Source of the DNA: Amoebophrya sp. A120
Taxonomy: Eukaryota; Protista; Dinoflagellata
Direction: 5' to 3'
Length of the DNA stretch: 52,198 nt
NCBI GenBank assembly: GCA_905178155.1
Contig: CAJINV010000029.1
Span: forward strand, 9,911 to 62,108
The notes under the pieces are model-generated. The model saw only the letters and a program-made list of their open reading frames with translations, did no database searches and was not told the DNA's origin. The position numbers and the translations under genes were made by a program. Positions 18,105 to 47,700 of the stretch are shown here, one piece after another; position 1 is the stretch's first letter, and every line of letters starts with the position of its first letter.

Positions 18105-21100
18105 CTATTCCTTCTTGATGTCCTGCGTGCCGCCTGATCCTCTGCTGCTTGTGTTTCGCGTTCGCCTGGCCGCCGCGTCTGCTCCCGCCCGTGAGGATCG
18201 GCTTCGCGAGCGATACTCATCTTCATTGGATGCAGGAGCGGTCGTCGGGCCTGCTGGTCGTGTCAACATTTCTGATGTGATACTTTCGTCTTCTTGCGCA
18301 GTTCTCGTGTTTCCCCACGGCCGCACTGGCCTCCTCGCACTCCCCGCAGCTCCTGAGCTGCTGCTACCGCCGTTGTTGCACCGTCGGGGCGGCGGAGGTG
18401 GAAATCCGATGAAGACGGAAGAGTTCATTTGCGCAGCGGTGGAGGAGCTGGATTTCGATCCTCCCCTCGTTGTTGTGGATTCGTGGTTGTAAACTGTTCG
18501 TGCGCCGCTTCCACCCCCGCCGCCAGAAGACGAATTCTTCGAACTATTGCGGCTGTGCGTATCGTCAGAACTAAACCTTCTCCAAGGGATGACTGGGAGT
18601 TGTGAGGAACAGTTGGAGCCCGCATCCTCGCAAAACCGAGCGGGCGGCGAGGGTCTGAAAGGTGTTGTACGACTGCCTGTAGGCCGGTCGTCGTTAGAAG
18701 TACAGCTGCTTCTCGCAGCCGCATTTGCGGTGGTGGGAAACAATGATCCGAGAATGTTGCCGTAGGTGGTGCAAACCCGCGCCGGCGGTAAGTTCAGTGC
18801 CGGTTCTTCTGATAAATACTTTACCCGCCTCTCCCCAGAAATCTCGTCGAAGCCCGCAGAGGACGAAGAAGTGCTTGACCTGTTGCTCACGGGTGAACAA
18901 GCAACAGCAGCTGCAGCGGAAGCAGCGGCAACATTTTCTTCTGTAGCCATAGCCGTAGCCGTAGCCTTAGCCACGGCCTTCGGCGCAGCCTCAACAGCGG
19001 TCTCTGATGTTGTCAGCGGTCGCATGAGGCAGTGTTTCTGACACTGTTTGTCGCTTCCCGTGTTACTGCTTGGTTCGCTTTTCACGATGTTATTGTCGCT
19101 AGAAGAATTTTGCCCGCTATGAAATGCAAAAGCATCGTACTAGTAGTAGTAACCGCATTACAAATCTGCTAAGCATGACAAAAGGAATTTCTCATGCTGC
19201 TTTACCTTGAGAAAGAGACTCGTCATGCATAATTAGGATTACTACGAGTACGATACTTTTACACAGGATACCCGCTGCTGTTCTGGAGTTCGTCGTCTAA
19301 GTTGCTAAGAAAGGTAGCAAGGGAAGACCGGGTTCGGGAGGGTAGTTGCGCGGGCTCCGACTTAGAGCCATCGTGAAGATCATCCTCTCCTTCGTGTTGT
19401 TGCCGGTCTACTTGCTGAGAACTTGTTGCTAGCAGCTGCAGCGGAGACAACATTCTGCTGCTCGTAGTGCTACCTTGGTCCTCGCTCTTGTGACCACCTG
19501 CAGGACCAGGAGCAGCAGCAGCAGCAGCAGCGCCGCCCCGCTCCCCGTCCAGAAACAACACTACAGTCTTGTCAATGGTCCTCGTAGGCGTCGGGGGAAT
19601 TGCTGGGTCCTCGGCGACGGCTACGACATCGGGTGCGGCTGAGGGCCGTCGAGATGTTGGGGTGGAAGATGGGCGGGGAAGCAATCGGCCCTCCCCTGGT
19701 TATCAAATGTAAAAATGTCTGGGTCTGGAAACTTGTGATGCTGGGTGGCGTATCATGAGGAAGCCATGAGTGCTGGCTCAGCATGACAAAATTCTGAGCT
19801 TCTAGGTGTTGCCTATTCTGCATGACAAACTGCGTTTTTGCATGACAGGAAATTGGGGCTCTTGGGTAACCTGCATGACAGGTTTAAGAGTCATGCCGGA
19901 GAAGCATGACAAATCGCGCATTCTTCCAGACCCAGACATTTGTACATTTGATACTGGTCGTTGTCGTCCCACTGGTGCCACCGCGCCATCCTTGTTCAAC
20001 ACTCCTCCGAGCTGTAGTTCGGTCGCTTCCTTGTTCGTCGTTGTTTCGTGCTCAGCCTCAACGCTTGTCGCAGGAGCAACGACCTCCGCCACTGGAGCAG
20101 CTGCGCGAGATGAGGATGGACATGGAGTGGGTGTGGGAAAACAAGTCCCATAACTTTCTTTCTCCACCCCGCAGAAAGCGGTAATTCGTCCGTCGGAAGT
20201 ACAAGAGGAGGAAAACTGTTGTACAAACTCTCCCGGCACTCCCAGTTGCGAGATCGTGCCGGGTCTTTTCCTCACAGTCACAGCACTAGAAGACGCAGTC
20301 GTTGTTCCTACTGGTCGTGCTTTGTTTCCATCACAAGTAAGCCTCCTCGTGGTCCCGACTGGTACATTTTTCGGACTCAGTAGCGCCGCTGCCGTCCGGT
20401 CGTTCTCTGCGACTTCTTCGCCCGCAAAACCAGTACTGCAATGGGCAGCATGCGGAGGCGCTACCAGCGGTTCTAGCCGTCTGGGTGGAGAGATTTGTTG
20501 CGACGAAAAGCCGCGGTTGTTCGTGGGGGTTGTGATTAAGAACAAATCGACTGGAGTCGTGGCGCTTCTATCCTTCCTGGTTGAAATCGCCTCTTCGCGC
20601 AGTTGCACAACAGGAGTACCTGCACATGCTGCAGTAGAAGAAGAAGATGCGGTCGAGAATGAAATGTCGACGCTGTCGTGGTGGTTGTAGTACGACGTGC
20701 CGGTCTTCGTGCCTCCACTCGGAGTTTCATTTTTTCCAGCACGTGGCTCGTCCTCGTGTCCTTCGGAATAAAAAACCACTTGTTCGCCTTCACGTTCGTC
20801 TTTATTTGCTCGAAACAAGCCTGCCCTCCTCGATGAAAGAGAAGATGCTGTCGTCGCGGTCGAAGATGGGGTTGGCAAAAATTGCAGAATTTTTTCCGCC
20901 TGGTTCGCTGTTAAGCTGGCCGCGGGAACAGTGCCTCGCAGCGGCGACATTATGACAGCAGTGGTTGAGGCCCTCCCGACAGAGCTAGAGACGGAGGACG
21001 TTCTGGTATTCAATCTAGCCTGCTGGCGCGCAGTGCCGCCTGAATTGCCCGACGTGGCCGTTGTACTCGTTTCTACCGTCGATGAAGTTTCCGTCCGCGC

Positions 21101-25675: not shown

Positions 25676-28600
25676 TCATCCCCGTCCCAGCAGCCCCTCC
25701 GTGTCCGCCGGCAAGCCCTCCCTGCTGTTTCCGGTTGGCGCTTGTCCGACCGGAGGACTATGCAGCCCTTGTTGGTGAGCAAGTGGCGCTAGCAACCTTG
25801 AAGACGCTGCTGAAGCGAGTGGCGTTGTGGATGAAGAGCTCTTTGCGCCGGTGGGCTCGGCACCACTTGGAGTTGCACAAGTAGGGCTTCTGTTCTTTGT
25901 ACTGCTCGGGGCTGTTGTAGCTGCGGCATGAGCAGGAGTGGCCCGCGCTACTGTTCTGATTTCTGGTGGCGTAGCTAGACCAAGCGCATCCCCACCTCGG
26001 ACATCATCGCTGGCGCCTTGTTTCGATTTATTGTCTTTGTCGTTTACTTGTGCGTTCGTACTTGTTGCACCCTCGTCACCCCCGTGAACGGCAGATGGTG
26101 AACCACTTGACACAGGCAGGAGAACGACGGTGCCTCCTGATGTAGTCGGAGCCGCCGGAGCTCCTCTTGTTTTATTTCCTCTGGACGCCGTGCCAGCTGT
26201 TGTCCTCCTCGTCCCGGCTGCTAAAACCGTCAGTGGTTGCAGGATCCGGCGGCCCACCCGAGTCCAGGCACTGCCGGTCGCGCTCCGCCGGGTCGTTATC
26301 AAGGGAGGAGAAGAAGAGGAAGAATTATCTCCAGCGCTTTTGCTTCCCGTGCACGACGAGGAGCTGCCTTTGCTGTGTTGTCTATCCCCAGGAAATTCAG
26401 CTTCGTTGGACAGTGCTGTGACCGTCACTGGTGTCGTCGTAGTGTCCCCAGCACAGGAGGAGTTGTAGTGCCGGCGCTGTGGATCACGATCAGAAAAAGA
26501 CGCAGGAGAAGTGATTCTGTAGTTGTTGTCATTGCTGCCCCGCCCCGGCGGACCATTGATTCGCTGGAGGTGTCCTAGTTGTTCTTGTTTCTCTCCATCT
26601 CCTAGTCCTAGAAATTTTCCTTTACAATTACACAATATGCTGCTTGCACCACCACAACTGCCGGCCGCGTCGCTGGCACTGCAGCTACTTGGTAGAAGTA
26701 TTGCGGTGCGGTTTCTGCAAGCCACGACCGCACTCGGCGATGCTGTCCGGCGCTCGTTTCCGCCGTAGTGATTGCTCTTGCAGCTACGAAGAACATCGTC
26801 AGCGAGCTCCTTTTCAAACTCGTTTAACAGCGCAGCCTCCCGCATAGCTCGCGACGGCTTCTGTGGCTGATCGATGTTGGTCCCCCGCCGGTCCGCAGTG
26901 TTGTCTATGGGACTACACAAAAGCACGATCCAATGGCTACTTCAGTGATTTTTGCAAGACGACCTGTCTTGTTTTCAGAATCAAAAATGCAATTTGTCAA
27001 GCGGATTAAAAATAAAGTAGCAGTACACATGATCTGTGGTCCCCAACCCCATGCATGAGCATGATGGCAAAATAAATTCGCACGAAAAAAATACTTTTGT
27101 GCCGTGTCATATCGTCGGAAGCACCGCGAGTCCAGGGCATTTCCATGGCCAAGCCGGAGCTTGTCGTCCTCAGGCTGTCGTTGCTTTTTTCTAGCAGGTC
27201 AAGTTGCACTTCGCGGTTCAGGATGGAGGTAGTTCTTTGCACGTCGGGTGTTGTTCGAGTAGTGATCAGCCCGAAGTTTTTGTTTCCTACAGAACAACCG
27301 GTAGAAACTGCACAACCCTGAAGGATGTCCTCATCCTCTTTATGGTGGTGTGCTGGTGGTACAACTATGTGTGGCAACAGACGTTCTTTGTTCATCACCT
27401 TGTTTCTTCCCTGCACCAGGATCTTGCTAGTAGTGTGGCTTTGCCGTAGTTGACCAGAAGCTCCTGCTGCTGAAGACGGCGATGCGTACGTGGGTAAGGG
27501 TACTGCGCTGGTCTTCTCTTTTTTCTCGCCGTTGAACTCTCCGTCCTGATCACTGCCAAGTTTGGCCAAGAGCATGTTCGCAAGCAAATCGCCCGGGCTG
27601 GTGCTACTCCGAGTGGTTGTACCCCGCGCAAAGAGTAGCTCTCCCTTGTCTATTTTCGTCCCGTCGGCAACTGTTGCCGAGGCCGCTGGAGCCGCTGCAG
27701 CAGTTTTTTCTTCTCCGCCCCACTGCTCTGTAGCAGTGCCGCTCAATGGCTTCCAAAGAATTTCCGAGCGGTCTTTGCTCGCACTGCGGCGCGTGTTCAA
27801 AAACTCGGCCGCCGTCAATGTTTCCCTGCCTTTCGGCGAAGGTGGCTCTGCTTCATGTGGTCCTTGTTGTCCTCCTGTCGCGGCCAAAACAGCAGTTCCA
27901 CGGGCTTCAGCAAGCGCAACGCACAGGGTCGTTGCACCGCGGAGGTCGAGTCCCGTCTCCACTTTTGTTGACGATGGCGACGACGGATCGCCTTCGCTTG
28001 ACCAATTTATTTTCGTAGAGCAAAAATCCCCCTCCCCCTCGGAAGTAGTAGATCCAGACTGCAGTCGGGACGATCGACTGCTTTTCCGACTGTCGTCGGT
28101 TGGTCGGCTCACAGTGTGGACGGCGCTGCTCGTCCCTCTTTCGCTGTCTGAGAAAACGGCGAGGAAGTCGTCTTCAACCCGCTCTGTTTCATCTTCTGGG
28201 AGCACTTGCATCTGCAAAATAGCGGGAGCCCGAAGACTGGGACTTGCTGGGTTCTTTGCGTCTGAGGCAGAACTACAGCCGGGGCTGCAGCTCAGTGCCT
28301 CGACGGCCCCTGATGAAGATCCATACGTACTAAAACCGGGGCTGTTGAACTGCAGGAGTAGTTTGTTGTTGTGCAACCCCTGCAGGCTTTCGACGCCGCG
28401 CTGCTGCCGTGAATTTTGTATAAGTTGCGAAACAGTATCCGATACTTGTAGTAAAATAATTGCAACACAAATTATAGCTCAGGATGACACATGGAGTTAA
28501 TATTTACATTGCTTGACTTCCGGGTTCTGGTAACGCATACCCCTGGCGACAGGTGACCTTGACAGGCGACCTCGACAGGTGGCCGCGACAGGTGACCTCG

Positions 28601-31600
28601 ACAGGTGACCTCGACAGGTGACCTTGACAGGTGACCGCGACGGGTGAACGCCCTGCCTTCCCCCACTAGTGACTCGCGCACTAAGCCACTATGCGCGCGC
28701 CTGGTGTGAGGCGAGGGGCGGACGCTGTCCGCCCCGATGCCGAACACCCTTCCCCCACTAGTGCTTCGCGCACTGAGCCACCATGCGCGCGCCTGGTGTG
28801 AGGCGAGGGGCGGACGCTGTCCGCCCCGATGCCGAACACCCTTCCCCCACTAGCGCCACTAGGGACGGGCACAAGGCCCCAGCGTGGGGACCCTGTCCCC
28901 ACGCTCGGGTGGGCCTTGTTTGTCATGCTGCGTTATCTAGAAAAGGAGATTTGTCTACTTGCAAATGACTGCGATGATGAGTACGAGTACCGGATTTACT
29001 TCTACACTGGATAGTACTACTTTGCGGCCCGACTTGAACCGACACGACTCCCGCTTCGGCCCTGACCGAACTAGGGGTGATTGGATCCTCCCCAGAAGTG
29101 CTCATAGACGAACCCGGGGAAGACCCTGATCTACTTCCGGAAGACGACAGCGTAGAGGGTTTGTCGGCTGAGGACGTTGAAGATGAAAGGCGCGAGGTAC
29201 TACAACTAGAGCTTGACGTGGCTTCCAGCTCGGCAAGGCTACTGCTTGAAGCCGCCGCAGCGTGGGCCGCGGAGTTCTTGCATCCTGTACCAGCGCCCTG
29301 AAAAGCATCTCTACAATTGCAGCACAAGCGTTCTGCATCACCTTCTACACAAGCTGAATCACGAGGAGCAGCTCTACTTGTACTTCCATCACCCCCGGAA
29401 CCAGGCCATTTGTCGGCAGTTTGATCTTCGCCGCTGTTGTTTTCATACCACGGCTCGCCTTCCGCCACACTGTCCATCGCCCGACTGGCGGAGGAGGACT
29501 TTGACACCAGGCGAAAGTTTGCTGCCGTACTAAGAGCCTCCGACTTCACGGATGGTGAGCATCCTCCAGGACTGGTTGCGTCCGCGCAACTACCGCGGCT
29601 CGTGGCCGTCGTCGCGAGGCTTAACGTTGACATCATTTGCAGTGCCGCGGCTGTTGTACAACTCGAGGCGTCGTCAGAAACATCATGTTCTGCCTCTACA
29701 CGACGACCCTTGTATAGTCGCCGGTCGGGCATGAGAACCGACAAGGGGGAAGATGCTGCCTCAGGTCGCGCCGCGGACGAGGAGGTTTCGCTCTTGATGT
29801 TGGCACCTCCACCAGCTTGAAAATTACCTCTTCCGAAAGGACTCAGCACACCGTCGTCCAGATGATGGTCAACATCTTGGTAGTTGTTCTTGCCAGCTGC
29901 ACAACTAGCTTCCTCTTTATTGTGCAGGAGGTCGTGCTGCGACAAAAATCCAGCAACCGCTCTGTTTGATGTTGTAACAGAACTAGACGTGGTCGGGCTT
30001 GTTGGCTGCGGTGGTTGCATATCTTCACAATCACCAGTTCTTGGTGCTGCATCACATTCGACGTCCCGGTTGTAGTGCAATGTCAACTCCAGTTGATGTT
30101 CGCGGGCCAACATCTTCGTGGCGGTCACGCCGGCCGTACTTGCGCTATCCAAACTTCTTCTGGCAGGCGTTCGATAGTGCGTCGTAAGAACAGGCGAATT
30201 CCCAGACGCGGGCGCTGGAGAGGAAGCATCCCCCGATACTAGTACCGGAGATGGTGCCTTTCCTGGCTGCGAGCTTTGTTGACCATTATCCGTGACAAGG
30301 AGATGCTGCTCAGCGAATGCACTCATCCTGTCGGTGTTGAAGTTCAATGCATTCGAAGCTGGATTGTACCGATTTAGCTGTTGGTCCTCGGGTTCTAAAG
30401 CTGGTGCTGGTGCGTCGCAATTTTTGCTCGAAAAAAAACTCGTGGGCGAGCAGGAACCACCGGACGTGGGGGAAGCGGATGCGGAGTCTGTATCTGCTGG
30501 ACCCGCTACTGTATTGTAGTAAGGGCTGTGGGACTCCGCCGGCCGGTTCTCATCATCATTATTTCCGACTTATCCAATGCAAAAGCATCGTACTCGTATA
30601 AATGCATTACAAATTTTCCCAGCATGAGAAATAAAATTTGTAATGCGGTTTTACCTTAAGAAAAATATTTGTAGTGCAAGACTTGCATTTATACGAGTAC
30701 GATACTTTTGCACAGGATACGACTACAGCAGCTGCAACTTCTATACCGCCTGGTAAGCGGTTACGATTTCCCGTTGGTCTTTTTATGTTCGCGCTCCCAC
30801 CAGCACCATGCGGATCATGTCTCCTGCTTCTACCTAGCGAGGACCGGGAATTTGGAATTTGCACCTGCAGCATGGGGTTCGCGAGGCGGCGTCGCGCGGC
30901 GATCATGGTAGTTTGGTTTGTTGATTCTGTTCTAATGCTAATGCGGGACGACGTGCAGTTGTCTTGGTTTTCGTTTTCATCTCCTAGACGACCCTCGTCA
31001 CGATCAATGCATCTAGTTGATTTCCTTGGGTGCGGGCGGTCGCAAAGGGCTGCAGCGAGAGAACTACACGCGGCGGCGTTATCATTCGCCCGGTTCGTAG
31101 TGCCGAACATCGTTCCAAAACTCTGGTACAGTCCCCGGCTCCCCCCTTCCTGCGCCACGAAAGGCGCCTCCTTGTCGTCGTCATTCTGCGCTAGAAATTC
31201 CACACGCTCGTTTATCCTGCGTAAAAACGTCCCCACCCCATAGTCAAGATGGGGATCTCGCAACACAAATCGAGCAGCTTTGGGAATCAAGCATGACAAG
31301 TTCCTCTCTGTAGTGTCGTGCGGTTTAGCAAGTACAGCCGCAAGACAAATCCATCTACTCATCCTGCTTACAGCATCACAAAGTCCAAAACACGATTGGA
31401 AATGGCTCTCATGGGGTTGCGCATTACAAATCTTCCTGTAGCTGCAAATCTGCATGACAACTATGGGGTGGGGACGTTTTTCCTCAGGATATTGTTCCCA
31501 ACGCCATCATCTCTATCTGCCCGTACTGTGACCGGATCATCCGCATCCGGTCTTGCTGCTCTACCGACGTAGTTCTGCTCTTTGGTAAAACCACGGGAAA

Positions 31601-32336
31601 GACCGTCTTGCAGAAAGACTTCACGGAAGATTACCTCCGCACGAGAATCTGCTTCACTGGAGGAAACCGGCACTGCAGAGTAGTATGTTGTACTACTTGC
31701 TGCCCCTGTAGGCGATGCGGGTGGCGCGGTGGATGCTGACCGTGCTAAGAAATCATGGTCGGACTTCGGTGTGGTCCGCGTGTCAGGCTGGTTGTCTTCT
31801 CCATGTCCATTGCGTTGTGCGCTGGAGGTAAATAAATCCAAATCTTCTCCCGGCCGCGCAGGAAAATCGTGGCGCGCCAGTTCTTCTCGCAGTGATGTCA
31901 TTGCTTTACTTTCACTACTAGTAGAACGCGGCACTTTTTCATGGACAAGAACAGGCGGCACTACTGCTGCTGCTGCTCCTGCGCCACTTCTCGTGCTGCT
32001 ACTGCCGCTAACCAAATTCCTCCCGCCACGAGCACGACCCGGGCCGTTTCTTGGAAAAAGCCCAGCTGGCTTTGGGTTGGCCGGCGATTGGATTCTAGTA
32101 CCTATTTCAGCTGCCGACCAGGAGGCGGCTGCAGTAGAGAAAGGTAGAAACTGAAGGAAAAATACGCATCGCATCGACGTCCTCTTCGCTTCTAAGATAG
32201 CCCGCCAGCACCTCTGGACGTGGCGACCATCTATTGCGGCCATTGCAACAGAAGGAGTGCAACCCAAGCAGGAATATACTCTCTCTGGCCGCGTTGTATT
32301 GCGACAGGTGCGAGACGACGGTAGCCAATAGGCCAA
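25676..32336 (-). CDS. Gene 4: low-complexity, probably secreted protein (~1750-1800 aa), 4 introner-like introns; paralog of gene 6
   Basis: Five ORFs join in frame (5412 nt) after removing 31213-31491, 30571-30719, 28419-29013 and 26906-27111 (+5). Likely ATG at 32174 (MRCVFFLQFLPFSTAAASWSAA, signal-peptide-like). Confidence 0.85.
26906..27111. mobile_element. Degenerate introner-like element
   Basis: TATGGGACTACACAAAAG / CTTTTGTGCCGTGTCATA; TSD TTGTC/TCGTC; frame restored. Confidence 0.8.
28548..28651 (+). repeat. 13-bp minisatellite (GACAGGTGACCTC) x8
   Basis: Eight consecutive units read directly. Confidence 0.95.
28656..28853 (+). repeat. 92-bp tandem repeat x2.15, each unit with a 9-bp-stem hairpin
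   Basis: Units start at 28656, 28748 and 28840; hairpin GGGGCGGAC-GCT-GTCCGCCCC. Confidence 0.93.
30571..30719. mobile_element. Introner-like element, family C
   Basis: C-type TIR; TSD CGACT perfect; very similar to 10761. Confidence 0.93.
31213..31491. mobile_element. Introner-like element, family D (inverted relative to 8078)
   Basis: D-type TIR; TSD TCGTT/TTGTT. Confidence 0.9.
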
Positions 32337-33152
32337 TGTTGACTACTTAGTCGGCTGTCGAAAGTGTTCCCGCTTTAGTTGAGGATGTGAAGTTCGTGAT
32401 TCGAAAGCGAAGTCCGGAAATTTGTACTTCATAACAGGAAAAAAAACGAAAACTCAGTTGTCAAGAGCTGCATTTTGAAGCTCGTCTTTCTCCGAACACG
32501 AGGTACAAAAGCCGCCAGCAGACGTGAAGTGATGGCTATGGAAATCATGTTCTAAATACCACTTGTGAACGAATTGATTTTAATTCGCATGCTATGTGAA
32601 ACTACGTTTTGAATACGTGTGGTTCATCTGCTCTGTGAATTCTAGAGCCCACAGCTCCGGTCCTACCGACGAGATGATGCAGCTTCGGTAACAGGGAGCA
32701 CTTGAATCTGCACCCGGAAAAAGAAGTGCAAAAATGTAGTAGAAAAAACTTCTTTATGTCGCTTTTCGTTTTGCAAACAGCAGTCGGCTTTTCCATTTTG
32801 CAGACACTAATACCATAGTTTTCACCGCCGAAAACGGACGAATGTTGATATCAATATTGACCAAAACGGTTCTAAAAATGATATAAACAAATTAATTCTG
32901 CAAAATTTTTTGATTTTTTCTTGAAAACATCCAGGCATCAAAGATGTACAAAACGAAGTAGATGAACAGAGACCGGGCCTAACGCCAAGTGTGGTCATAT
33001 ATTTGTTTTGTAGGGCTTCCTGCAAAGTACTCACAGGAGCTAAGAAGCCAAGTTTTAGATATGATTCATTTCCTCCACATGAGAATAGACTAGTAATACC
33101 CGCCGAACGCAATTAAGGTCCCCGCGAGGTGGACGACTACCCTACTAGATTT

Positions 33153-36100
33153 TCACGCCTTTGTATCGCACAGAAAAAGCTCTTTCACTGTGACAACGTT
33201 AGAGCAGATCGCGCGGTGATCCCAACTTGAACTTTCGATCGATACAAAGAATTTCTATCTGGTCTCTGTAGCTGCTTTGGAGGGGCAAAAGCAAAATAAC
33301 CGTTTCCTAAAAATTCGAAAGCAGTAGCCACAGAGACAAATTTTCTTGTTGTGATACAACTATACTCTCCTGCGTGCTAGAATTTCAAAGTGAAACAGTT
33401 TTTTTCTGTGCGATAGCCCAACCATCGTGCCCGCTCCAAGGGCGGTTCCGGTCCTGCGGTGCGCGTGTTCTTATGACATGCAAATATGTCTGGGTCTGGA
33501 AACTTGTAATGCTGAGTTGTGAATAGTGAGTGCTCTGTAATGCACAGCCAAGCACGATAAATATTTGCGCGGCTACTTAGTGTTGCGCTTTCCGCATGAC
33601 AAACTGCGTTTTGCGTGACAAGTAAAAGGGTCTCTTCTTGGACACGCATGACAAACTCTTCAGTCATGCCAGACAAGCATGACAAACTTGCCAATGCGAT
33701 ATCCCAACCATCGTGCCCGGTCCAAGGGCGGTTCTGGTCCTGCGGTGCGTGATCTCCGAGTGCTCGTCTGCTCCTCCGCCTGTGTTGCTATGAATTGCAA
33801 AAGTATCCTATCGCACTCGTATAAATGCATTACAAATTTCGTCAGCATGAGAAATAAAACTTGTAATGCGGATTTATCTCAACAAAAGGATTTGTAATGC
33901 ATGACTGCAATACGAGTACGATACTTTTGCACAGGATAGTTGCTGCACGAGGACCATTGCTAGCACCATGCTGATCCAAGGGCGGTTCTGGTCCTGCGGT
34001 GCGTGATCTCCGAGTGCTTGTCTGCTCCTGCGCCGGTGTTGCTGCACGAGGATCATTGCTACCACCTCCACGCGGGGACGATGCTCTTGCCACAGTGCGC
34101 GAGGACTGCGACGGCGGCTCGGGGCCCGGAGTTCTCCGAGACGAGTGTCTGTTGATTTTTTCCGCATGAAAAGTTGTGCCGTGCGGGGAAATTGTAGCCG
34201 GATGGTGTGACGAAGAAGAAGTAGTTGCGGGCATAACTACACCGTCAAACCCATACCGATCTGGCGCCTCTTGTTGCTCGCGATGATTTGGGATTCCAGA
34301 TCGAAAAGCGGCAGAAACAGAAGGCGCCATGTTCATCCAGGCCCTAGCGGTACTATCACCGGGCTGCAGCTGCTGCTCCGCTGTTGTACTACTAGTACCG
34401 TGCTGGCCACCCTGCTGCTGCACATCTGTAGTGGTTGTCAGTGCTGCAGCAGTCGCTTGCTCGCTGACAGTTGTGGTGCGGCGCTGGCAGAAGCTCCGGA
34501 TGGGATTGGTGCGGCGAAGCGGATTGATGCCTGACGGATTGTTTGTCCTCGACGAAGATGTTTATCAAACGCGAATATATCTGACTGTGGAAGCTTGTGA
34601 TGCTGATTGGTCATTATTGAACCGCCTTGGCCTTCCTCGTGCAGCCAGGCATTACAAATATTTTGGGCGCTTTTGCATGAGCTTGCGTAGCGCGCATTAC
34701 AAACTGTGTTCTTACACAACACACACGGTCCTCGCGCTTCTATTCGTCATGCTCATGCAACACAGATTTTGTAAGAATTATCCAAGACATGAAATACAAG
34801 TTCAACACTTTTTCAGACCCAGAAATCTTTGCATTTGATAGTGGTGTGTTGACAGCGGAGGTTGAAGATGATGCCACTGCAGATGTAGATGCTGACGCTC
34901 CTGCAGAACAACAAGTGGGTAGCAAACCGCTTCGCAAGGTCCCCGTTGGAACTGGTACCGCACTGGTGATTCGTAGCAAGGCATTGCCCGTCGGATGTGA
35001 CATTGTAGGTGCTTGTCTTCTCGTCGGTGCCAGCATGACTAGTGGATGTAATGCAGTTCGGCCACTCGCAGGACGTTGCGGTGTCGGGATTGAGGACGGG
35101 GGGAGGCGAGCAGAAGCGGGGGCTGCATTTGCATTATTTGCGGGGGCCGAACTAGAACTCCCGTTGCTGTTCATCCTTGGGTGTGCTGGTGTTTTGGAAG
35201 AGGTCGACCACGTGTTGCAACCGCTGGAAGTAGATGTTGGTGCTGCTCCACCTCCTCCTGGTCTTTCGAGTCTCCCGTCACCTCGTCCTGCAAGCGTCGT
35301 TTGCAACGGCGCTGCTTCCTGTTCCGCCCGGGAAATAAAGTTGCTTCCCCGCTGGTCTCTAAAAGGCGCTGCCCTGGCGTGCGTTTGGTTGGACCACCCA
35401 CGCACCCACGGAAATTCCTGGTCAAGGTAGTCATCCAAGTCGTCAAAGTGTGGGAGTGTGTATGCATTGCATTTGCAAAAGCGTTCTTGTACAACTTCTA
35501 CAGCAATTAAATGCACAACTTGCATCATAATTTTTTTCAGAATTGGAATATGGATTTTGTGATGCAGATTCCGGTAAGAAAAAACCATCTGTCATGCACG
35601 ATTGCAATGTGCGAGTTGTACACAACTATTTTGCATAGGATAGTGTCTCGTCGCTTTTCGACTGCATCGCCACTTCAAACCGACGCTGGCGCTCTTTCCA
35701 AGGCAGACTATCGCAAGAAAAAACTGCTTCACTGTGACCTTGTGATGCAGAAAATGGATCACAGAGGTGTGTGTCATGCTACACATGCAAGACAATGGAT
35801 TTCTAGCTGTGTTTTCCCTTAGGGACCCCGCATGACAGATTTTCAGTGTCATGCGTAACAAACTTGTGATGCAGATTTTGCACAACCACCACAGTGAAAC
35901 AGTTCTTTCGTGGGATACAAACGGTCCGGCAAATAATCCTCGTACCAAGGGAGAGTCGGCTCTTCACGCGGGTTACTGTTGCTAGTATCGCCGGAGGAGG
36001 AGCTGCTGGTGGTTCCAGATGATCCTGATTCATATGAAGCTGGCTGCACGAAAGAAGTTGACGTGTCCGTACTAGTTGCTTGTCTTGAACTACCGACGAG

Positions 36101-36613
36101 TTCTTGAGCGCTTTGTTCCTCGTCCTTTTCACTTGTGCTTTTCTCTGGTGGAAGTACATGCGCAGTTCTGGGAACAAGAGGTCTCGGGTCTGGGCCCGGC
36201 GGTGGAAATTGCGAACAAACTGCAAGAACAGTGGTGCTAGCAACACGACTGCACGGAGGTGGACTAGGGCTGGCAGAGCTAGTACCGCTGCTTGCTGTAC
36301 TTCTAAATTTCGACAAAACACGTATACTTCTTGGAAATGCGTGAGGGCTGCGGCCTGATTCTACTCCCCGTTGTGATTCTTGTAGTACTGCCACCAGCTC
36401 TGACTCATCCACGCTGGCAGCGCGACTGCTTCCTGCCGAAGACGGCGAGGTTGTTGCCAAGAAGCTGCTTTTGCCTGGTGTCGTCCAACTACACGAAAGA
36501 AGAGCTATTGAGAAGATGTAGATCCGCGAGAATGTAGCGGATGTGGACCACGTTGAGGGCGCCGGATAGAACGTAGCCGGAACTACACCAGGGTGCCGAC
36601 GTGAGCTCGCCAT
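33153..36613 (-). CDS. Gene 5: low-complexity protein (~709 aa) with N-terminal hydrophobic segment and C-terminal RTAGPEPPL repeats, 6 introner-like introns
   Basis: 2130 nt in frame after removing six elements (+5). Ends RARWLGA*, matching the DPWLGA* end of gene 6. Confidence 0.8.
33164..33415. mobile_element. Introner-like element, family E (decayed interior)
   Basis: TATCGCACAGAAAAAGCTCTTTCACT / AGTGAAACAGTTTTTTTCTGTGCGATA; no TSD; removal gives the WLGA* terminus. Confidence 0.8.
33472..33701. mobile_element. Family A element with replaced or truncated right end
   Basis: Left A-type TIR; right end ...CAATGCGATA lacks the A TIR; no TSD; frame restored. Confidence 0.8.
33789..33938. mobile_element. 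Introner-like element, family C
   Basis: C-type TIR; TSD GTTGC perfect; empty site in the repeat unit at 34038-34042. Confidence 0.95.
34563..34840. mobile_element. Introner-like element, family A (diverged)
   Basis: Degenerate A TIR; TSD ATGTT/GTGGT; frame restored. Confidence 0.85.
35461..35642. mobile_element. Introner-like element, C-like
   Basis: TATG..TGCAAAAGCGTTCTTGTACAACT / AGTTGTACACAACTATTTTGCATAGGATA; TSD GTGTG/GTGTC. Confidence 0.85.
35709..35917. mobile_element. Introner-like element, family E
   Basis: E-type TIR; same 209-bp length as 7430; TSD CAGAC/CAAAC. Confidence 0.92.
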
Positions 36614-37049
36614 TTCTTTGAGAATGGCCGTCGTGCTGTCACCCCGTATTTGACTGGACGGGAAAGCGAAAGCGTATGGTGCGCGGAAGTTGGGCTAAAA
36701 AACGGAACGCAGGCGAGCCGCGGAAAGCAAAACCATTTACGGCTTCTGTCTGGGCCGGATGATCATTCGCAGTAGTACATGTGCCATAGCAATACTGCGT
36801 CTGAGGAATAGGCCATGTGGTTCAGATGGAGCCTAGAGTAGAAGAACATAAAGAGCACACCAGTATATTCATAAACATATTTCTGGCCCTGGCGGCGGCA
36901 AGACCGCGAAGACGTTGAGATGCGAGAGTTTTGAACGCAGACTTCAGCAGCCTCGCCACCACGCTTTCCATGGGAGATGAGCGGATGTAAATCTAAACCC
37001 ACAACTGCGCCAAGTGCCACATTTAGCCTCTATAATCTGGAGACAACAC

Positions 37050-38400
37050 AAAGCGAAAGATCGCCCCGCGTCGCTTTTGTCAGGCGAACTGCCCGCATGC
37101 AGATGCGAGCGCCGCCCAGGAAAGCGAAACGGCCACTCGGCCAGTGCGACGTCGCATGTGCTGGGGCCCACCACTAGCACAGACGCAGACGCGCCACAAA
37201 GACATTTTGGGCCAACCCCGCCGCCGCCGGCTTCGTTTCTTTCTTTGGAGGCCGGAAAGGCAGGGCGGGCCGGGGCAAACGCGGCAGGCACGCCCCCCCC
37301 TGGGGCGACGGGGCGGGCGCTAGGTAGCTGCGCGCCCCGGCGGCGGACATGGTGCGCCCGGCCGGCCCTAAGGGCGGGCAATGGCGGAAAACCAACCCCC
37401 GCCCGGCGTCACACGGACGGGCGGGGGCCACACACAGACACCACCAGCCGGCGCGGCGCCGAAAACCGGCGGGCCGCCTGCGCGCCCGCGAGCCAACGCG
37501 CCGCGCGAGGGTGTTACGCCGAACCCGCACCGCCGCCCTTTTGCCCCCCGTCGTTTGCCGGCAATGCGCTCGGCTTTTTCTTCGTAGTGCCTGCCGCGCC
37601 CCTGCGCTCCGCGTCATACTCTCGCTCTTCGGCCGGGCAGGGTCCCCCGCCTTCTGCCATATTGCCTCCAGCTCCGCCGCGCCGCCGTCTCCGACCGCCA
37701 CACCGGGTGCCCGGTCTAGAAATAGGCGGAAACACCCGCACAGACTTGGAAAGGGAGGGCGCTGGAATGAAGGGCATAAACGTCACAGCCGGCAAGCGGC
37801 ACGACCCGAGGCCGGCGCCAGCGCCGGGCGGCGTGCGCGCACACTACAAACCCCGGCCCCTTTGCGTATCCTTCGAAGAAGTTGGTCGGGAGAAATGCTC
37901 GAGGCGCCCAACATGAAGATAGTGACGCCCGTACCAAGCCGGGGCCGGGGGCGGGCACGTGGCGGCGCGCCGGTGTGACGCGGGCGGATTGGAAACGGCG
38001 GGGGCCTGCGGGCCGTCGCCTCCTTCCGCCGTTGGCTAGGCCGCGCCCCCCTGCCGGCGGGCCCTTCTTCGCATCGGCCAAACCATGCGCCCCCAGATCG
38101 GGCAATACATGGCCCAGCTCCACTCTGGCCCAGCTCCACGCCGGTCCGGCTCTGCCCTGGCCCAACTCCTTGCGCGCGCCCCCGTAAGCGGCCGCTCATC
38201 AGTACCAGCGTGACTCCTTGCGGCGCTTCGGCTCCGGGTCTTCCCCCGCCGTTGGAGAAGAGCGGCCCCCGCCTTTGGCTCCGTCTCCCGATAGGTAGCG
38301 ACCGCCCGCGGGGCGTCGTTCCCTGAGAATCCACAAGCAGGGCCCTGAGCATGGCTCTCCCAAGGGCCAGACGCTGCTGCTGGTGCGGCGTTGAATATCG
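37050..38400. other. Very GC-rich intergenic island upstream of gene 5
   Basis: Same compositional shift; boundaries approximate. Confidence 0.7.
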
Positions 38401-39740
38401 TTCGGAGCGTTTTTCAACACGCACCGCCTCCCGAGAAGTTCAAAAAGCTTCCAGGAACACGACAAGTGCATCGCTTTATTGCCTCCGCGAGGTACGCATG
38501 AAACAGGTGCGTCCGGCCTCTACGGCGATGGACGTGTCGTTGCATGAGCAACGCACTCACTCAGATAATTGTTCAATTTGAAAACTCTTCGTCTTCCTAG
38601 CTGTCGAAGCAAATGCTTGCCTACTTCTTGCTTTTCGAAATCGAAACGCGACCTACACTGGTACAGCATAATTTGATCAAAATTTTTTTCGATTCGGTAA
38701 CTCAACTGCATGGTCTTTGTTTTTTCGATTTTTTCATCTCAGCCTTGGGCCCTGTTTCCACATCTGGTAGATTTTTTCGCCCAAAATTCCGACCGTGCAT
38801 TTTCTGCAATGTACGATAAATGAGAAACATAGGAAGAAGGTCAATTAATTGAAAAGCCATGCAATAGAAGTATGGCAGAGTCGCGCATATTACATGCAAA
38901 TTATACGCCTGCTCTATCTCACCGGCTTGCCATGTTTATTGCCATTCTTTTAAACTACATTTCATCTCGCGCAGCCAACGCTAGCTCCTAAAGCGTTTAC
39001 GTATAGAACGGTTTTAGAAATCGACCCTTGTAATTTCTCTTCAGGAACTAAAAATCTCACTACTAAAGGATTAACTTTAACCACTGTCACTGAGCCTCCC
39101 TCACTGTACTAGTTCTGGTGACCACGTAATCGCAGTGTAGCATCAAGAGTCAACATCGGAATTCTTGGAATATAAATCAAAAGTCGAAAATAAAATTTTG
39201 CTGTGCAAACAGAAGAACCAAAGATGACATGCAGCAGGAATACGCCTCGAATACATCCTTATGCGAACCGGCTTTCATCTGTTGGAACCAATTCTCGTCA
39301 AAATCAAAAATGAAGACAGCTGTAAAAGTAAAAAATATTCTATGTTTTACGTTTCCACAAGCAACAGGCACGGATGCCTACATCTTACCAATCTTTTCAA
39401 TAATTTTGCGAACGACAAAAAATCAAAGTTTGTGTTTATAATACATTTTTTGATTCATTTTTAAATTTATTCCTTCTCGCTGACGAAATCGTTGTTCTAT
39501 ACAACTTCGCCCTGGACTAATCGTTCAGAACTTTAATCGCAGGAATAATATATTCACTCAAAAGTAAACTGCACACCGAGTCGTCTCACGAGTGTGTGTG
39601 TGTCATTGGCACGCGAGGCCCCCAAATGCTAGAAGCAAAAAATGACAGGTGCAAAAAAATTATCTTTGTGAACATAAACAAAGCCGATCGAAACGGAAAC
39701 AACTCCGGCTCAAATTGATCAAGACAAGCTCCTATAATTA

Positions 39741-41617
39741 TTTGCAAAAACAAAAACAAAATTAATTATGCATCGTATACTATAGTTACATTTTGGTACT
39801 ATCAAATTCCATCCATCATCACGCACCCAACCATGGATCACCGCTACTTTCCCCCGAAAACCCCAGCCGCGGCGTCTGCGCCGCTTTCGCCATAGGCCGC
39901 GGACTAGCGGTGCGAATGTTCGACGGCGCCAGACGGTTCACAAAGCTCCTCGCCCGGTTTTTCGTAGATGTTGTTGAAACACCAGCGGCAATGTTAATAT
40001 GGTTTAACACTCTGGGGCTACTGCTTGTCGAGGTCGTAGTTTCTTGTGCCGTGATTGGCAGAATTTTTCGTGTGAGCAGACGCTTGCTGTTGCCACACTG
40101 TGGATTGTCTGTTGTTGGAAATGGGTTGTTCGTAGTTGTGTCGCGTGGGTCGATCATGCCACCAGCATCTCTGCCAAGAAGATTTTTAAAACCACCATCC
40201 GTATTGGTTCGTTGTGAAGAAGAAGAACTTGAACTTGGCATAAAAGCCCGACGAGATTGTTCCTCGTGATTGAGATTCGGTTGCTGTTGTTGAAGCGGCG
40301 ACCCTGCAGTGGACGAAGCTGCAGAAGTGGACAAAATTGCAGTAGTACTAGTAGGTCGTGGTTGATTTTTTAGCATTTCCCTTCCGCCAGCCTCACCAAC
40401 GCTTGTTCCTCTCGACAAAATTGCAGTAGTACTATCTAGCACGGGCGGTCGCTCCGCGACCGCCGGAGAGGTATGGAGTAGACAAGGAAACGATGGGCCC
40501 GATTTCCTAGTAGGAAGGTTGCAGTCCTCGCGGGGAAGGGGAGGGGATTCTCCTGGGGGCGAAAACTCTGCAGGCGCAGGGCTTTTGAGTGCGCCGGAGC
40601 CCCCTGGAGGAAGACAAAGGCGTGACAGCGGCCCGCCCCAGGCCCCTGGAGAAGGAGAAGCACCGGGAAACCGAAAGAACACCCGGGGCGAGCCCACCCT
40701 GGGAGGGGACGAGCCTTCCGGGATGTTCCCAATTTGCGAGCACCCCCCCAAGTTGCGAGCCTTACGGGCGGCTGCTCGTCATTCTAGAGCTACGCCCCGC
40801 TGTATTTCTAGTTACGCCCCCAAGGCGGTGGGGCTGCTTTCGACGGAGCCCACAGGGCCGCAGCTGCGGAAAAGCTGCGCGACAAAAAACCTGGCCAGCC
40901 AGACAGGTGCAACCAGCCCAGGGGGACTAGGCGCACTGTGTGTGATGGCCATTCCTTCGGGGCAGCGAGAAAAGGCGCCGCTTTCTTTGCGCAGGGCGGC
41001 GGGGGCATCCACACGAGGAGGGGCCTCCGCCGCGAGGCAAAACGGGGTAGCCCAAACAAAGCGCAAAGCCATCCCGGGCACCGTGGCCGGGCCGGAGCTG
41101 CTAGTTCGCCTGCACCTGCGGGCGCAGCAGCACGCGCCGCGCCACCCTCGGTCAGATAAAGAAGCGCTCGCCCTCCCACGGCTGCACCCCCTTTTCCCGG
41201 GAACGAGCGCCACGTCCCGCGCGACCACACAGGTACTAATTGCTCGGCGCTAGTTTCTCCACAGGGGGCAAGGGAAGCCAGCAGCGCGGGCGAGCTTTGT
41301 GGCGCAAGCCCGGGGCGAACCACCCCGCGCGGCAGTTTTCTTTTTCTTTTTCTACTAGTAAGCTTTCTCCTAGTAAACTCTCTACTAGTACGCTTGCTAG
41401 TAGTTTTTTTGCTTGCTTGTCACGATAAGATTACTAGCAGCGCAGCCTACTAGTAAAATTCTTGGATTTTCCTTACTAGTAAGATTTTACTAGTAGAAAT
41501 CGGGCCATGCGTCAATCGATTTTCTTGCCGTATAGTATATAGGGTATTGTAGGTCGTGGTTGATTTTTTAGCATTTCCCTTCCGCCAGCCTCACCAACGC
41601 TCGTTCCTCTCGCCGTC
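39741..41617 (-). pseudogene. Element-free tandem partial copy of the gene 6 3' end and 3' flank, interrupted by a 1.1-kb GC-rich insertion
   Basis: 39741-40413 and 41549-41617 align with 41618-42821 but lack elements 41794-42049 and 42098-42332 plus one TSD each. Frame is still open to DPWLGA* at 39819. Confidence 0.85.
40435..41548 (-). mobile_element. 1.1-kb GC-rich insertion without TSD, Helitron-like 3' end
   Basis: Splits GTAGTACTA|GTAGGTCG of an 84-bp tandem duplication; perfect hairpin 40444-40464 followed on the minus strand by CGTG-CTAG; TACTAGTA-type repeats at 41350-41495. Confidence 0.6.
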
Positions 41618-41707
41618 TTTGCAAAAACAAAAACAAAATTTAAATTAATTATGCATCGTATACTATAGTTACATTTTGGTAATATAAAAGTAAAACTCCA
41701 TCCATCA

Positions 41708-44700
41708 TCACGCACCCAACCACGGATCACCGCCACTTTCCCCGGAAAAACCCAACCGCGGTGTCTGCGCCGCTTTCGCCATAGGCCGTGGACTATGAAA
41801 TGCAAAAATGTCTGGGTCTGGAAACTTGTGATGCTAAAATGTGCATGATGAAAACACTTCCGAATGCAGTCCGGCATGACAACTTCCCACAATTCTTTCT
41901 CGTAGGCAATCCGCATGAGAAACTGCGTTTTTGCATGACAAAAGAGGCTGCGACTTTTGTTGGTAAATATGCAATACAGATTTTCTAGGTATGGAAAGCT
42001 AGCATTACAAGTTCCAACCTTCCAGACCCAGACATTTTTACAATCCATATGGACTGGCGGTGCGAATGTTCGACGGCCCCAGACGGTTCACAAAGCTTAT
42101 GGGGCTCTCAAACGTTACATTCTCAACTGTTACATGATTTGTCATGCAAAAACACTATCACTATTCACACGACCAAGCCTGCCTTGCATGACAACTTCTC
42201 GACGCGCTACATAGCACTATAATCCGTCCCAAATCTGTAATGCAAAAGGCGCAATCTTCCTCCTGTACTTTTGCCACTCTTGCATTACAAATTCATGTAA
42301 CAGTTGATAATGTAACGCTTGAGAACGCCATAAAGCTTCTCGCCCGGTTTTTCGTAGATGTTGTTGAAACACCACCAGCAATGTTAATATGGTTTAACAC
42401 TCTGGGGCTACTGCTTGTCGAGGTAGTTTCCGGTGTTCTCGTGATTGGCAGAATTCGTGTGAGCAGACGCTTGCTGTTTCCAGGCTGTGGACTGTCTGTT
42501 GTTGGAAATGGGTTGTTAGTCGTTGCGCCACGTGCGTCGATCATGCCACCATGATCTCTGCCAATAATATTTCTGAAACCATCATCCGTATTGGTTCGCT
42601 GTGAAGAAGAACCACTTGAAGAACTTGGCATAAAAGCCCGATTTTGTTCCTCGGAATTGAGATGGTGCAGGTGATTCGGTTGCTGTTGTTGAAGCGGCGA
42701 GCTTGCACTGGACGAAGCTGCAGAAGTGGACGAAATTTTTGCAGTACCAGGTGTAGTTCGTGGCTGATTTTTTGGTATTTCCCTTCCGCCAGCCTCACCA
42801 ACGCTTGTTCCTCTCGCCGTCATAATCGCCAGCGGCTGCAAAACCCGTTTCCCGACCCGCGCCCAGGTGCTAGAAGTAGCCGACCGGGTTGGTGTGTTTT
42901 GCGACGCGGCGCTGTCTTTGCTTGTTCCCTGTCTTGTCGTACTACCAGAGGCCGCGTCGGTCGTGTTAGGAGTGATGTTGCGGACGAGAGCCGTCATTTG
43001 CGCAGGAGTCTTCCAGGGTTGTAACAAGCTACTAGTGGGGGCTGATGTAACCACGGAGCTTCCAATTGCATTACTAGCACCATTTCCTGACGAGCCGGAA
43101 GCTGCACCGTCCGAAGCTGCACCGTTTCCGTTCCTGCAGGACGTGACCGCGGCAAACCCAGAGCCGGCCACGACCGCACCAGTTGAGCAAGATGAGCCTG
43201 TTTGTAGTTGCCTGGTAGTTGAATTTGAAAACTGTATTTCCTTTTCAAACTCCAGCATCAGCGCCACTTCGCGTTCCGCCCGCGACGGCCTCGCGGGATC
43301 GTCCGCCGGCACTTTACGGTCGTGCGTGTCGTCTATCAAATGCAAATACGTCTGGGTCTGGAAGAATGCCAGACTTGTCATGCAGGTTTTCCATGACCCA
43401 TGAGCTCTGGCATGTAGGACATAGCATGACAGATTCTACTGTGAGGGTTCTATCATGCCTATCCTGCATGAGAAAGTGCCTCTCGATTAGGTCCATAGTG
43501 GACAGCTTTTGGTAATCATGCAACACAGGTTTTATTCACGCTTCAGATTTAGCATGACAAGTTGCTTTGTTCCAGACCCAGACATTTTTGCATTGGATAT
43601 CGTCCGTTGCGCCACGAATCCAGCCAAAGGTTTTTGCCAGGTCTTCGTCCGTTTTGCTCAGTGTGCTGTCATATGCATTGCAGATATGTCTGGGTCTGGA
43701 AGGTTGGAACTTGTCATGCTAAATCAGAATCATGCAAAAATCTGTGTTGCATGATTACCAAACGCTGTCCACTTTTGATCAAGATGAGAGGCAGTTTGTC
43801 ATGCAGGATAGGCATGATAGTGATCTCACGGAATCTGTCATGCTAGGCACTCCATTACAGATCATATGGGTCATGAAAAACCTGCATGACAAGTCTAGCA
43901 AAGTTCCAGACCCAGACATTTTTACAGTTGATATGTCAGCGTCTTGACTATCGGAATGAAAAGACGTTGCCGCATGCTGTACTGGTATTGGTAGCTGCAG
44001 TATCGTGTGTTTCAAATTCATCTCATTGGCTGCTGCACCCAAAGTTGTAGCCAAAGGGGGCGCAGGAACGACCTCTGCACCAGCCGCGCAAGGAGGCGTA
44101 GAATCATCGGTGCTACTGCTGGTCGCGAGGCCACGACTGCAACTCGCAAGGTGTCCTTTGACCGACGGTGGAGTTGTGCTCATCTGCTGCTCCAAACCTG
44201 TGTTGTTTTGTTCTTGCGGGGTCGAATTATAAGCTGATTCGTCTTTGCTCGTCGTCGTGGTCACTACACCGAGCTGTTGCACGAGGGTCGTCGTGTTCTG
44301 CACGTTCTTACCCATAGCCGCCTTTTCGACAGGGTGAATTGAGGATGTCTGTGTTGCAGGACCACGTTCACGGGACGACGCCGAAGATGCAGGTTGAAAG
44401 GGCGATGCTGACGTGAAAAACGCAGTGCCACTGGTGCTCGATGATGGGCCACCATAATTTCTCACACTCGCAGTAGAGATCCCACCCGTAGTTCCAGCTG
44501 CAACGGGCATTGCTGAAGACGATGATGGCGAAGAAGACTCCGGAACACGAACCGTTCGCAGATTGTAATTGATTTCCAAAAGTTTGGTTGCTTCCGCTAA
44601 AGCTGCAATTGACTGCTCCTCCTCATTATTTGCGTCATCATCTTCGCCAACATTCGCAAGACCTTTCACCTCCGCTGCACCAGCACGATGCGCAATAACA

Positions 44701-47700
44701 GTACTAGCTTGGTCCGAAAGTTTGCTGCTTTTTCCAGAACCAGTTGAGAATGGTGCTGTGCTTCTTGTCCACGCGCTTTGTATGCCAGTCTCGACTTTGG
44801 TCGACAGCGGTGAAGACAAGTCCTCGCTCGACAGGTTTAGTTGCGAAGAGCTGTTTTGTAAAGATGAAGAATCGCCTTCGCCGGAACAACCTGATAATGC
44901 CAGACAGTCGACGCCGTGAGTAGTTGTAAAATTCCGCCGGCCAACATGCGCGTCCTCAACAATTGCACCTTCCCCGCGACCAACATCCGTATTTTCAGGC
45001 AGCGCTCCAACGATCATTTCGCAATCGGGAACGAAACTGCTTCTCGCAGTACCACCACTGACCGCCGAGGCAGAAGTAGTTTTCGACCTGTTTCTAGTAC
45101 TATCGCCGCTGCTCTTGGAGTCGTGTAGTAGTTCCGTGTCATCGCCGGCTAACACGAAGGTGAAAGCGGAAGTGGTTCATCTCATTGGTTTACTGTAGTT
45201 GTTTTTGATGCCCGAATTAGAAAGAGCGTCACCGTGGTAATCCCCATCGCGGACATCATCTCCTGTCCGAGGCCCCGTAGCGGTGGACAAAACATTATCA
45301 AGAAAACTGTTGTAGCCAGCACTGGCCCCCGTAGCAGTATCCTGTTTTTTCCCTCCTCCGCCCCACGCCTGTTTTCGCCGCTGCGTTCCGGTCTCTACTT
45401 TGGTTGAGCTCGGCGACAACGGAGAGTATGGAAAAAGTGAGAAAAAACGTAGTTCGCATATAGCATTACAGATTCAAAACACGACGGCTGCATCGTGGAA
45501 CCAGAAAGAGAAAACAATTTCAAAAACATCATTGTCATTATGGTACGTGACATGCACATTCTCCTAAACCGCATCAAAGCAAACAGGTTTTTTACCTTCT
45601 TAAACACGAGGAGTCGTCCCTGGAACTATCGCTTGAGGAAGAGGGCGACGACGCCGTGCCAACGGTAAAAACATCATTCCGCCCTGGTTTGCAACCGAAT
45701 AAACCGGCTTGCTCTGGTACAGCCTCCATCGCAAATCCGCTTACTGCAGAAGACTTCGAACCTGCGCGCACTCCAGTTGTATCATGGCCGACCTGCTGTT
45801 GTTGCAGAGATGAAGACGCCTCGATGTAGCTATGGTTTGGTGCGCTGTGTTGCGGAGCAGCCAACACGTTGAGTGAAAACAAAACTTCAAGCTCTCGTGC
45901 ATCTTCTCCCAGCCCCGGAATGGAGTTGCCCAAAAGTAGCTGGCTGGCCGCTTCTGCGCGCTGCGTTTCGGTGGATGAGCTCTCTGTTGCAGTACCTGAA
46001 GACGACGAAGAGGTGGTACCGCTAGAGGAACTCGAACTACCCAAAACACTGGAGCAAGAGCCGCTCGAAGTGTTCATTTTACCATCATGATCATTGTTCA
46101 TCCCAGCAGCGTATCAAGTGCAAAAATGTCTGGGTCTGGAAGAATTCATGTTTGTCATGCTTGTCTGGCATGACTCTTAAATCTGTCATGCACGTTACCC
46201 AAAAGCTCCGTTTTTCTGTGATGCAGAAGCGCAGTTTGTCATGCAGAATAGGCAACACCAAGGAGCTCAGACACTTATCATGCTGAGCCAGCATTTGTAG
46301 CCTCATCATGAGACGCCACCCAGCATCACAAGTGTCCAGACCCAGACATTTTTCCTTTTGATAGAGTGCTTTGGCTTTGGCTTTCCTCCCCCCACGCCGT
46401 CCCGACGCCGGAACCGGGGGCGAGTCGTATCATGCGCGGAGCAGGTTGTCGGAGCAGAGAGGAAACGGCTTTGGTTCGTTGTTGTTCCGCAGCTGGCTGC
46501 AACACCATCGCCGGATTCGTAGTTGATCTGCCGAGCGGCGGAAAAGAAGTAGAAGAAGAGGATCCTTGTTTTTGCAACTGACCAACATGATCATGCGCCG
46601 CTTTGTTACTGCGTGAAAACGCCTCGTCCTCGGAAAGCCAGCGAGGTTCTTGCGAAGACGACGACCCAGAGGTTGCTGCGGGGACGGCTAACAAGCTCGA
46701 ACCCAGCATGACACCGGAGTTGACAGATGTACCTGATATACATTGCAAATAAACCAAAAGTACCTGATAGTTTTGCTTGGAAAAATACAGAATATTTTAC
46801 ATATATGCAAAGTGCTGCAAAAAGGCAAGCAAAAACTCTAGTAAGAAGTGCTGATTTACCGTATATACAAACTAGATTTTGATGTCACGGAGTGTTGCAA
46901 CTACTACGATTCATGCCATGCAACTTGCACAGAGGATACCTTTATCGTGAAGAGATGAACCAACTTCACCAACAGTGGTCACACCTTCGCTTTGCGCCCT
47001 GCTTTTGGCCATCGGTGTATTTTCGGTAGCTTGATTCACCACGACCCCCCGCTCTTGCACAGCACCTCCTCGGATCCATGTCAACACGGGCGCTGGCCTT
47101 TTTGCCAACGACGCACTGCGGAAGGTCGGTGCCCGGGGTTGGTGGGTTGGGGCTCGGGGTTCGTAGATTTTTACTGTCGCTGGGCCAGAGCTCGACGCGG
47201 AAGTTGTTGTTTCAGGTCGTCGGGTTTGGTCTTGATCGCTTTCCTCCACCGTTCTAAAACCAAAGTCCGTTGTTCTCCTCACCTCTGTCCCGGTAGAAAG
47301 TGCCGACGCTGCAGATTTATTTTCAATTCTCCTCATTTGTTCTTCACCCTCGGAAGAAAAATCGGCACGACCGGAACAAGGTCCTAAACTAGCTGGATGC
47401 AGGAGCTCCGCCTCCTCCATCGGCGCGGCGTATAGTGTCGGCGTGACCAGTTGGGGATTAAAAGATGATAATGTCGCAGTAAAATTGGATGTGGGAACAC
47501 GAGTGGGTCTACTTGTTCTAGTTTGTGTTGCGTAAACCAAATTTCCCTGCTGTCGATTGGTAGGCGCCACGCCACCTCCCGAAGATCCCCCGCCGAAGAC
47601 CGCTTGCTGCGAAAATTGGACCTGAGAAAAAATAACCTGACTTTGATTCACATTCAATGACGTGGCTCCTAAAAAGTGATTTTCTCCGGCGCCAACGCCG

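Follow-up and report, generated by a model that had tools for sequence, protein, structure and literature searches.

When two diverged paralogs are interrupted at the same base, was the intron inherited from their common ancestor, or has one position been filled twice? This question is raised by a 52,198-nucleotide (nt) stretch of the Amoebophrya sp. A120 genome (here referred to as the window; contig CAJINV010000029.1 of assembly GCA_905178155.1, positions 9,911 to 62,108 of the forward strand), in which two paralogous genes, genes 4 and 6, carry different introners, e4 and e6, at a shared site (Table 1). The accessible text of Farhat et al. (2021; PMC7789003) describes the introners of A120 as non-canonical introns of ~240 nt with TAT-starting inverted repeats, short direct repeats, and a hairpin; it also reports that 98.6% of the intron positions common to A25 and A120 are canonical and that the non-canonical introns are younger than the split of the two, looking strain-specific and recent. 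The window elements resemble these introners in their TAT ends, their 5-bp direct repeats, and, for e4, non-canonical splicing in a putative RNA contig. That paper compares the positions of A25 and A120 orthologs, and different families at one paralog position are not treated in its accessible text. A first-pass annotation of the window, made from the letters, noticed the coincidence and proposed that an old intron can be swapped for a young element or that insertion is strongly site-directed. Here, we conclude that the two introns were probably gained in parallel, by two independent introner insertions after gene duplication, helped by positional clustering.

Both elements begin 23 nt past the first base of a W codon, after GACGA in transcript sense. 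Genes 4 and 6 share 28/58 identical residues around the site and 20/35 in a second block, and blastp aligns them across 267 columns (E value of 8e-16); they are the best-matching diverged pair in the window. The first-pass annotation placed and translated both sites correctly, with element lengths of 206 and 266 bp, and the two genes are, as it said, cut at an identical position, with the same offset from the W codon and the same GACGA register. The TCGTC flank that it gave to both is complete in gene 6, where the target site duplication (TSD) reads TCGTC/TCGTC on the forward strand (5/5), and partial in gene 4, where it reads TTGTC/TCGTC (4/5). The exon-encoded protein of gene 6 is 100% identical to a protein labeled Amoebophrya sp. 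A120, and the public annotation of A120 has WIRGATDDTHDR across the site (gene model P0001), which is not independent proof. The observation of two unrelated introners at one paralog base is confirmed as real. Copies of the motif in genes 2, 3, 5, and 7, more distant than those of genes 4 and 6, have no intron at the site. The element at 10761-10905, preceded by WRRGFRSV and likewise 23 nt from a TGG, at first resembles a third case, but WRRGFRSV does not belong to the open frame, which here gives YENDNGSFLSGSRANGGADSGV, and we regard the match as a coincidence.

How are these introns removed? A putative RNA contig of run X3 joins 27112 to 26900 with no other letters, which removes 211 nt and gives SDDTADR in gene 4. 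Five other joints in runs X3 and X4 fit the loss of 1 nt, the element, and 4 nt; two are unambiguous, and in both the letters between the joint ends are not known. This rule (transcript sense, putative RNA contigs, window 33159-35918) fits even where the TSD is fully decayed. Because joints elsewhere, including the unambiguous ones, fit it, the true cut at the shared site is probably in phase 1, and not in phase 2 as first annotated. For e6, the evidence of removal is the open frame together with model P0001. Runs X9 and X10 cover pieces of elements and not exons, and are uninformative on splicing at genes 4 and 6. The coverage by X9 is confined to a family A stretch at 43686-43758, at 90-95%, with none of the exons; therefore, transcription of family A extends to a diverged strain that bears the same species label.

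The two elements were compared within a sample of 488 elements in 0.66 Mb, comprising the 45 of the window and 443 from 157 loci, merged to 604 kb, that have a family A end motif in one other assembly (12/64 parts scanned, biased toward family A). The scan for elements favors good TSDs, and it returned 4 elements in 387 kb of shuffled DNA as a control. Aligned with each other, the check that the first-pass annotation had proposed, e4 and e6 reach a local score of 27 (z score of 0.8 to 1.0 against shuffles, versus 58 to 124 for e6 and its own family), and e4 did not turn out to be a decayed family A copy. The description of e6 as an intact family A element stands: it belongs to a cluster of 211 of the 488 elements, its nearest relative is 89.9% identical, it matches the majority of its 12 closest elements at 236/262 columns (~10% from its relatives), its profile score is 262 bits, and its TSD is perfect. 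The description of e4 as decayed stands equally, given that no full-length relative was found among the 488 elements, that its TSD matches at 4/5, and that it does not fold (hairpin z score of -0.7, compared with -7.3 for the strongly folding e6), though its ends still pair. An inverted repeat starting with TAT is present at both intron ends in each (13/16 in e6 and 12/16 in e4).

By position, the simplest history would be one ancestral family A insertion, of which the gene 4 copy diverged past recognition and the gene 6 copy was kept family-like, for example, by gene conversion. Furthermore, e4 has a GCATGACA-type core motif, common to several families. We nevertheless consider this history very improbable. 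Of 12 family profiles, the one that e4 fits best is that of family B (16.3 bits; best shuffle, 3.0 bits), versus 4.8 to 9.2 bits on three family A profiles, where it matches in the core only and on the strand opposite to e6; its ends match family C at 13-14/18, and it is without family A termini and without collinear full-length similarity to family A.

Between genes 4 and 6, 10/30 fourfold sites match, which is near saturation (Jukes-Cantor total of 1.65; lower bound of 0.74). Because these sites are near-saturated while e6 is ~10% from its relatives, the arrival of e6 postdates the duplication by a wide margin; it either entered a vacant site or displaced an earlier element. As is characteristic of parallel gain, the introns that share the site, e4 and e6, are non-homologous. 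Under parallel gain, gene 4 would have received an older B/C-like element and gene 6 a family A element of much more recent date, both after the duplication, presumably by cut-and-paste mobilization with a transposase acting in trans.

Could e6 instead have taken the place of an older element? In this alternative, an element predating the duplication later underwent excision or breakage in gene 6, after which a family A copy served as the repair template for the gap, via the shared TAT...ATA ends and with the old TSD kept. The model for such a swap is P-element replacement by gap repair; however, that process needs shared end sequence, of which the present families have little apart from TAT...ATA, and e6 has the look of a fresh insertion. 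The exact register in the two closest paralogs, the TAT/ATA termini common to all families, and the age of e4, with neither a hairpin nor a full-length relative in the sample, would fit replacement, as would the 5/110 youngest elements with a TSD match of ≤3, some of which are boundary miscalls. The TSD of e6 speaks against replacement. TSD match falls with age, from a mean of 4.75 in the youngest class to 3.95 in elements without a non-identical full-length relative, and 173/228 elements in the age class of e6 have a perfect TSD. The probability of a 5/5 TSD is 0.03 to 0.18 if inherited and 0.76 if fresh, a likelihood ratio of about 4 to 24 for a fresh TSD. Because a swap would keep the old TSD and synonymous sites are saturated, yet the TSD of e6 is perfect, fresh insertion is favored over a swap. 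A young element in a decayed TSD or with chimeric ends would indicate replacement; e6 has a 5/5 TSD and two complete family A ends. Moreover, unreplaced old shared introns should outnumber replaced ones, and none was seen in the diverged paralog pairs sampled (a small sample). The swap put forward by the first-pass annotation is disfavored by these two results, and we regard it as a live but rather unlikely account of the site.

A better candidate for a swap (or for template switching) than e4/e6, and the best in the window, is found in gene 5. Its two terminal repeats (RTAGPEPPL[DE]RARWLG) are 91-96% identical, and each is followed at the same base by a different TSD-less element. The upstream element, 33472-33701, belongs to family A, is ~90% like its relatives, and has a shortened 5' end; it starts with TATCGCA, the same 7 nt as the downstream, older D-type element at the equivalent repeat position (33164-33415), a heptamer present in 1/422 family A ends. 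This structure, which counts in favor of replacement, may have any of three origins: a swap, template switching accompanied by a 56-nt duplication, or loss of 25 nt within a family A end, the last a reading that speaks against replacement. The element thus may be a case of a young element with a decayed TSD or chimeric ends. The element before the gene 5 stop codon has a TSD match of 0/5 and an inverted repeat of 15/16. A more general proposal, that introners are exchangeable in place through breaks at old elements repaired from another family via TAT...ATA ends, with both e6 and the TSD-less element of gene 5 as products, is in our judgment doubtful.

If the site was filled twice, how unusual would that be? 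For a 174-nt block with one gene 4 element and two gene 6 elements, the chance of an exact hit is 1.1%, or 0.3% when the wider alignment is taken. The four diverged pairs together give 0.04 expected coincidences in 0.66 Mb, equivalent to about 7 per 115 Mb, the genome size in the accessible text of PMC7789003, and non-window loci alone give about 1.3; these genome-wide values are rough, being scaled from four pairs and in large part from another assembly, and the case was chosen because it is coincident. The argument that independent hits at one base are unlikely therefore holds for this pair, at about 1%, but not for a 115-Mb genome, in which about 1 to 7 are expected. Across 21,611 aligned bp of paralogous frames, a count that includes off-register repeat alignments, an element was present in just one partner at 17 sites and in both at 3, the latter being e4/e6 and two identical elements in near-identical duplicates. 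A search by flanks yielded a third identical pair in near-identical duplicates and 10 clean filled/empty sites, leaving out L017_6343, L018_1641, L152_412, and other element-like hits (boundary miscalls) as well as one-sided hits. At locus L008, family A and family G elements (9416-9679 and 14795-15118) occupy the homologous site of two tandem paralogs with an offset of 2 nt (chance of about 3%); the pair cannot come from a swap because the TSDs, GATCG and TGGAT, are in different registers. In the second L008 element, the exonic TSD copy is changed and the intronic copy keeps the sequence of the paralog. Different elements also precede the W codon of genes 5 and 6, at distances of 45 and 48 nt (chance of about 18%).

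Both e4 and e6 lie in GACGA, as expected if insertion were strongly directed to a target of this type. We give this explanation hardly any credence, and the strong site direction proposed at first pass does not survive the count of TSDs: 331 perfect TSDs comprise 227 distinct strand-collapsed 5-mers, with GACGA/TCGTC occurring once and no base exceeding 35% at any of 25 positions. A 25-position profile lifts the coincidence just 1.23-fold, giving the two sites scores of 0.5 and 1.17 times background, and in gene 3 a GACGA at this register is empty (the homology there is short). Because two Asp codons are conserved, both genes would have GACGA at this point, and the identical flank would be a by-product. 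Insertions are positionally biased, being clustered 30 to 79 nt from their neighbors. Of 355 neighbor gaps, 122 fall at 30 to 79 nt (~7% expected under an exponential) and 4 are under 30 nt (~5% expected); e6, at 67 nt from the neighboring introner, is within this peak. A positional, possibly chromatin-linked, bias may thus lift the coincidence above the uniform expectation. In the accessible text of PMC9860276, introners with a nucleosome-linker preference are reported, and a positional over a sequence preference with a 30- to 79-nt spacing peak would fit such a pattern. A 10- to 11-nt periodicity of the gaps is not claimed, with P values of 0.004 to 0.03 at scattered periods among 11 tried and not at 10 or 10.5.

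Several points weigh against parallel gain. The exact coincidence is still a 0.3 to 1% event for genes 4 and 6, and as each of these genes has the other as its closest paralog in the window, one ancestral gain is parsimonious by position and needs no coincidence. The TSD clock assumes that intronic copies drift like synonymous sites, and it is softened by the bias of the scan toward good TSDs; the genome-wide expectation is a rough extrapolation, and the gene 5 repeats show that different families can occupy the same position without a TSD. Finally, an ortholog or empty allele dating either insertion was not found by protein searches or among 593 pattern matches; protein searches for orthologs and further paralogs returned the window's own model or nothing.

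The setting of the site is a series of minus-strand genes densely interrupted by elements of 145 to 324 bp that start with TAT, end with ATA, and are flanked by 5-bp direct repeats. Taking out each element with 5 nt gives long open frames, e.g., 1837 codons spanning 24 elements. Among the 45 elements of the window, the TSD matches at 5/5 in 24, 4/5 in 14, 3/5 in 3, 1/5 in 3, and 0/5 in 1. Elements at 1033-1204 and 3774-4041 are without a TSD (1/5), and the latter is an intact family A copy outside open frames. Gene 2 has 18 elements within ~1.2 kb of coding sequence. A tandem family of long low-complexity proteins occupies 4424-48920, with the motifs W-x-R-x-x-x-D and S-x-W/F-x-R-V-G-x-R and a terminal WLGA; protein searches found no relative of this family outside A120, and no Pfam family was found in 3/3 window proteins tested, gene 4 among them. 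The duplicate of the gene 6 3' end is identical to it at 82/97 fourfold sites, and a third partial copy lies at 41549-41623. Between two gene 4 frames, 28534-28860 consists of 13-bp tandem repeats and a duplicated GC-rich block, and GC-rich intergenic blocks lie near 22.5-24.4 kb, 37-38.4 kb, and 49.3-51 kb.

Table 1. Coordinates of the shared-site introners and related features in the window
Feature	Position	Strand	Description
e4, decayed TAT...ATA introner, gene 4	26906..27111	-	206 bp; family-B-like core, family-C-like ends; TSD GACGA/GACAA
e6, intact family A introner, gene 6	43334..43599	-	266 bp; TSD GACGA/GACGA
Gene 4 open frame, e4 removed	25679..28478	-	863 codons stop to stop; WTRGASDDTADR motif, W codon 27134; may extend into 28926-32342
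Gene 6 open frame, four introners removed	41711..45176	-	809 codons; WIRGATDDTHDR motif, W codon 43622
Family A introner adjoining e6 in gene 6	43672..43933	-	Leaves 67-nt exon before e6; without counterpart in gene 4
Gene 5 motif copy WVRGWSNQTHAR	35367..35408	-	Site uninterrupted
Gene 3 motif-like stretch WRRFSSDDTHSR	18543..18584	-	GACGA in same register, uninterrupted; homology of 12 residues only
Gene 6 3'-end duplicate	39822..40500	-	Without introners at 41794 and 42098; empty-site control for 5-bp TSD
Gene 5 terminal repeats	33164..33701	-	Each followed by a different TSD-less element: 33472-33701, family A; 33164-33415, D-type ends

Parallel gain at one site is a known kind of coincidence. 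In Daphnia pulex, non-homologous introns occur at the identical site, up to six at one locus (PMC4202315, as far as accessible); there, alleles of one gene are involved and no terminal inverted repeat (TIR) families are described in the accessible text, whereas here old paralogs carry members of two TIR families. Fungal introner-like elements likewise show parallel gains at near-identical sites (accessible text of PMC4457414), with a young repeated intron where an unrelated older intron sits and a similar argument from element decay, although those cases concern a 15-bp window, comparisons between species, and canonical introns. In the literature searched, which reached few subscription papers, no report of introner replacement in Amoebophrya was found, and the accessible parts of PMC12130899 and bioRxiv 10.1101/2020.10.14.339549 do not mention replacement or same-site insertion.

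As parallel gain, genes 4 and 6 offer a clean example that, in introner-rich genomes, paralogs can share an intron position that is not ancestral; the two partners at the shared site are traceable to different element families, and the strong spacing bias opens hotspots to testing. Were replacement true, element age would mislead as a date of intron gain, and introns could be renewed without change of gene structure. If exchange in place were true, intron positions would outlive their sequences, and some of what looks like recent gain would be renewal of introns.

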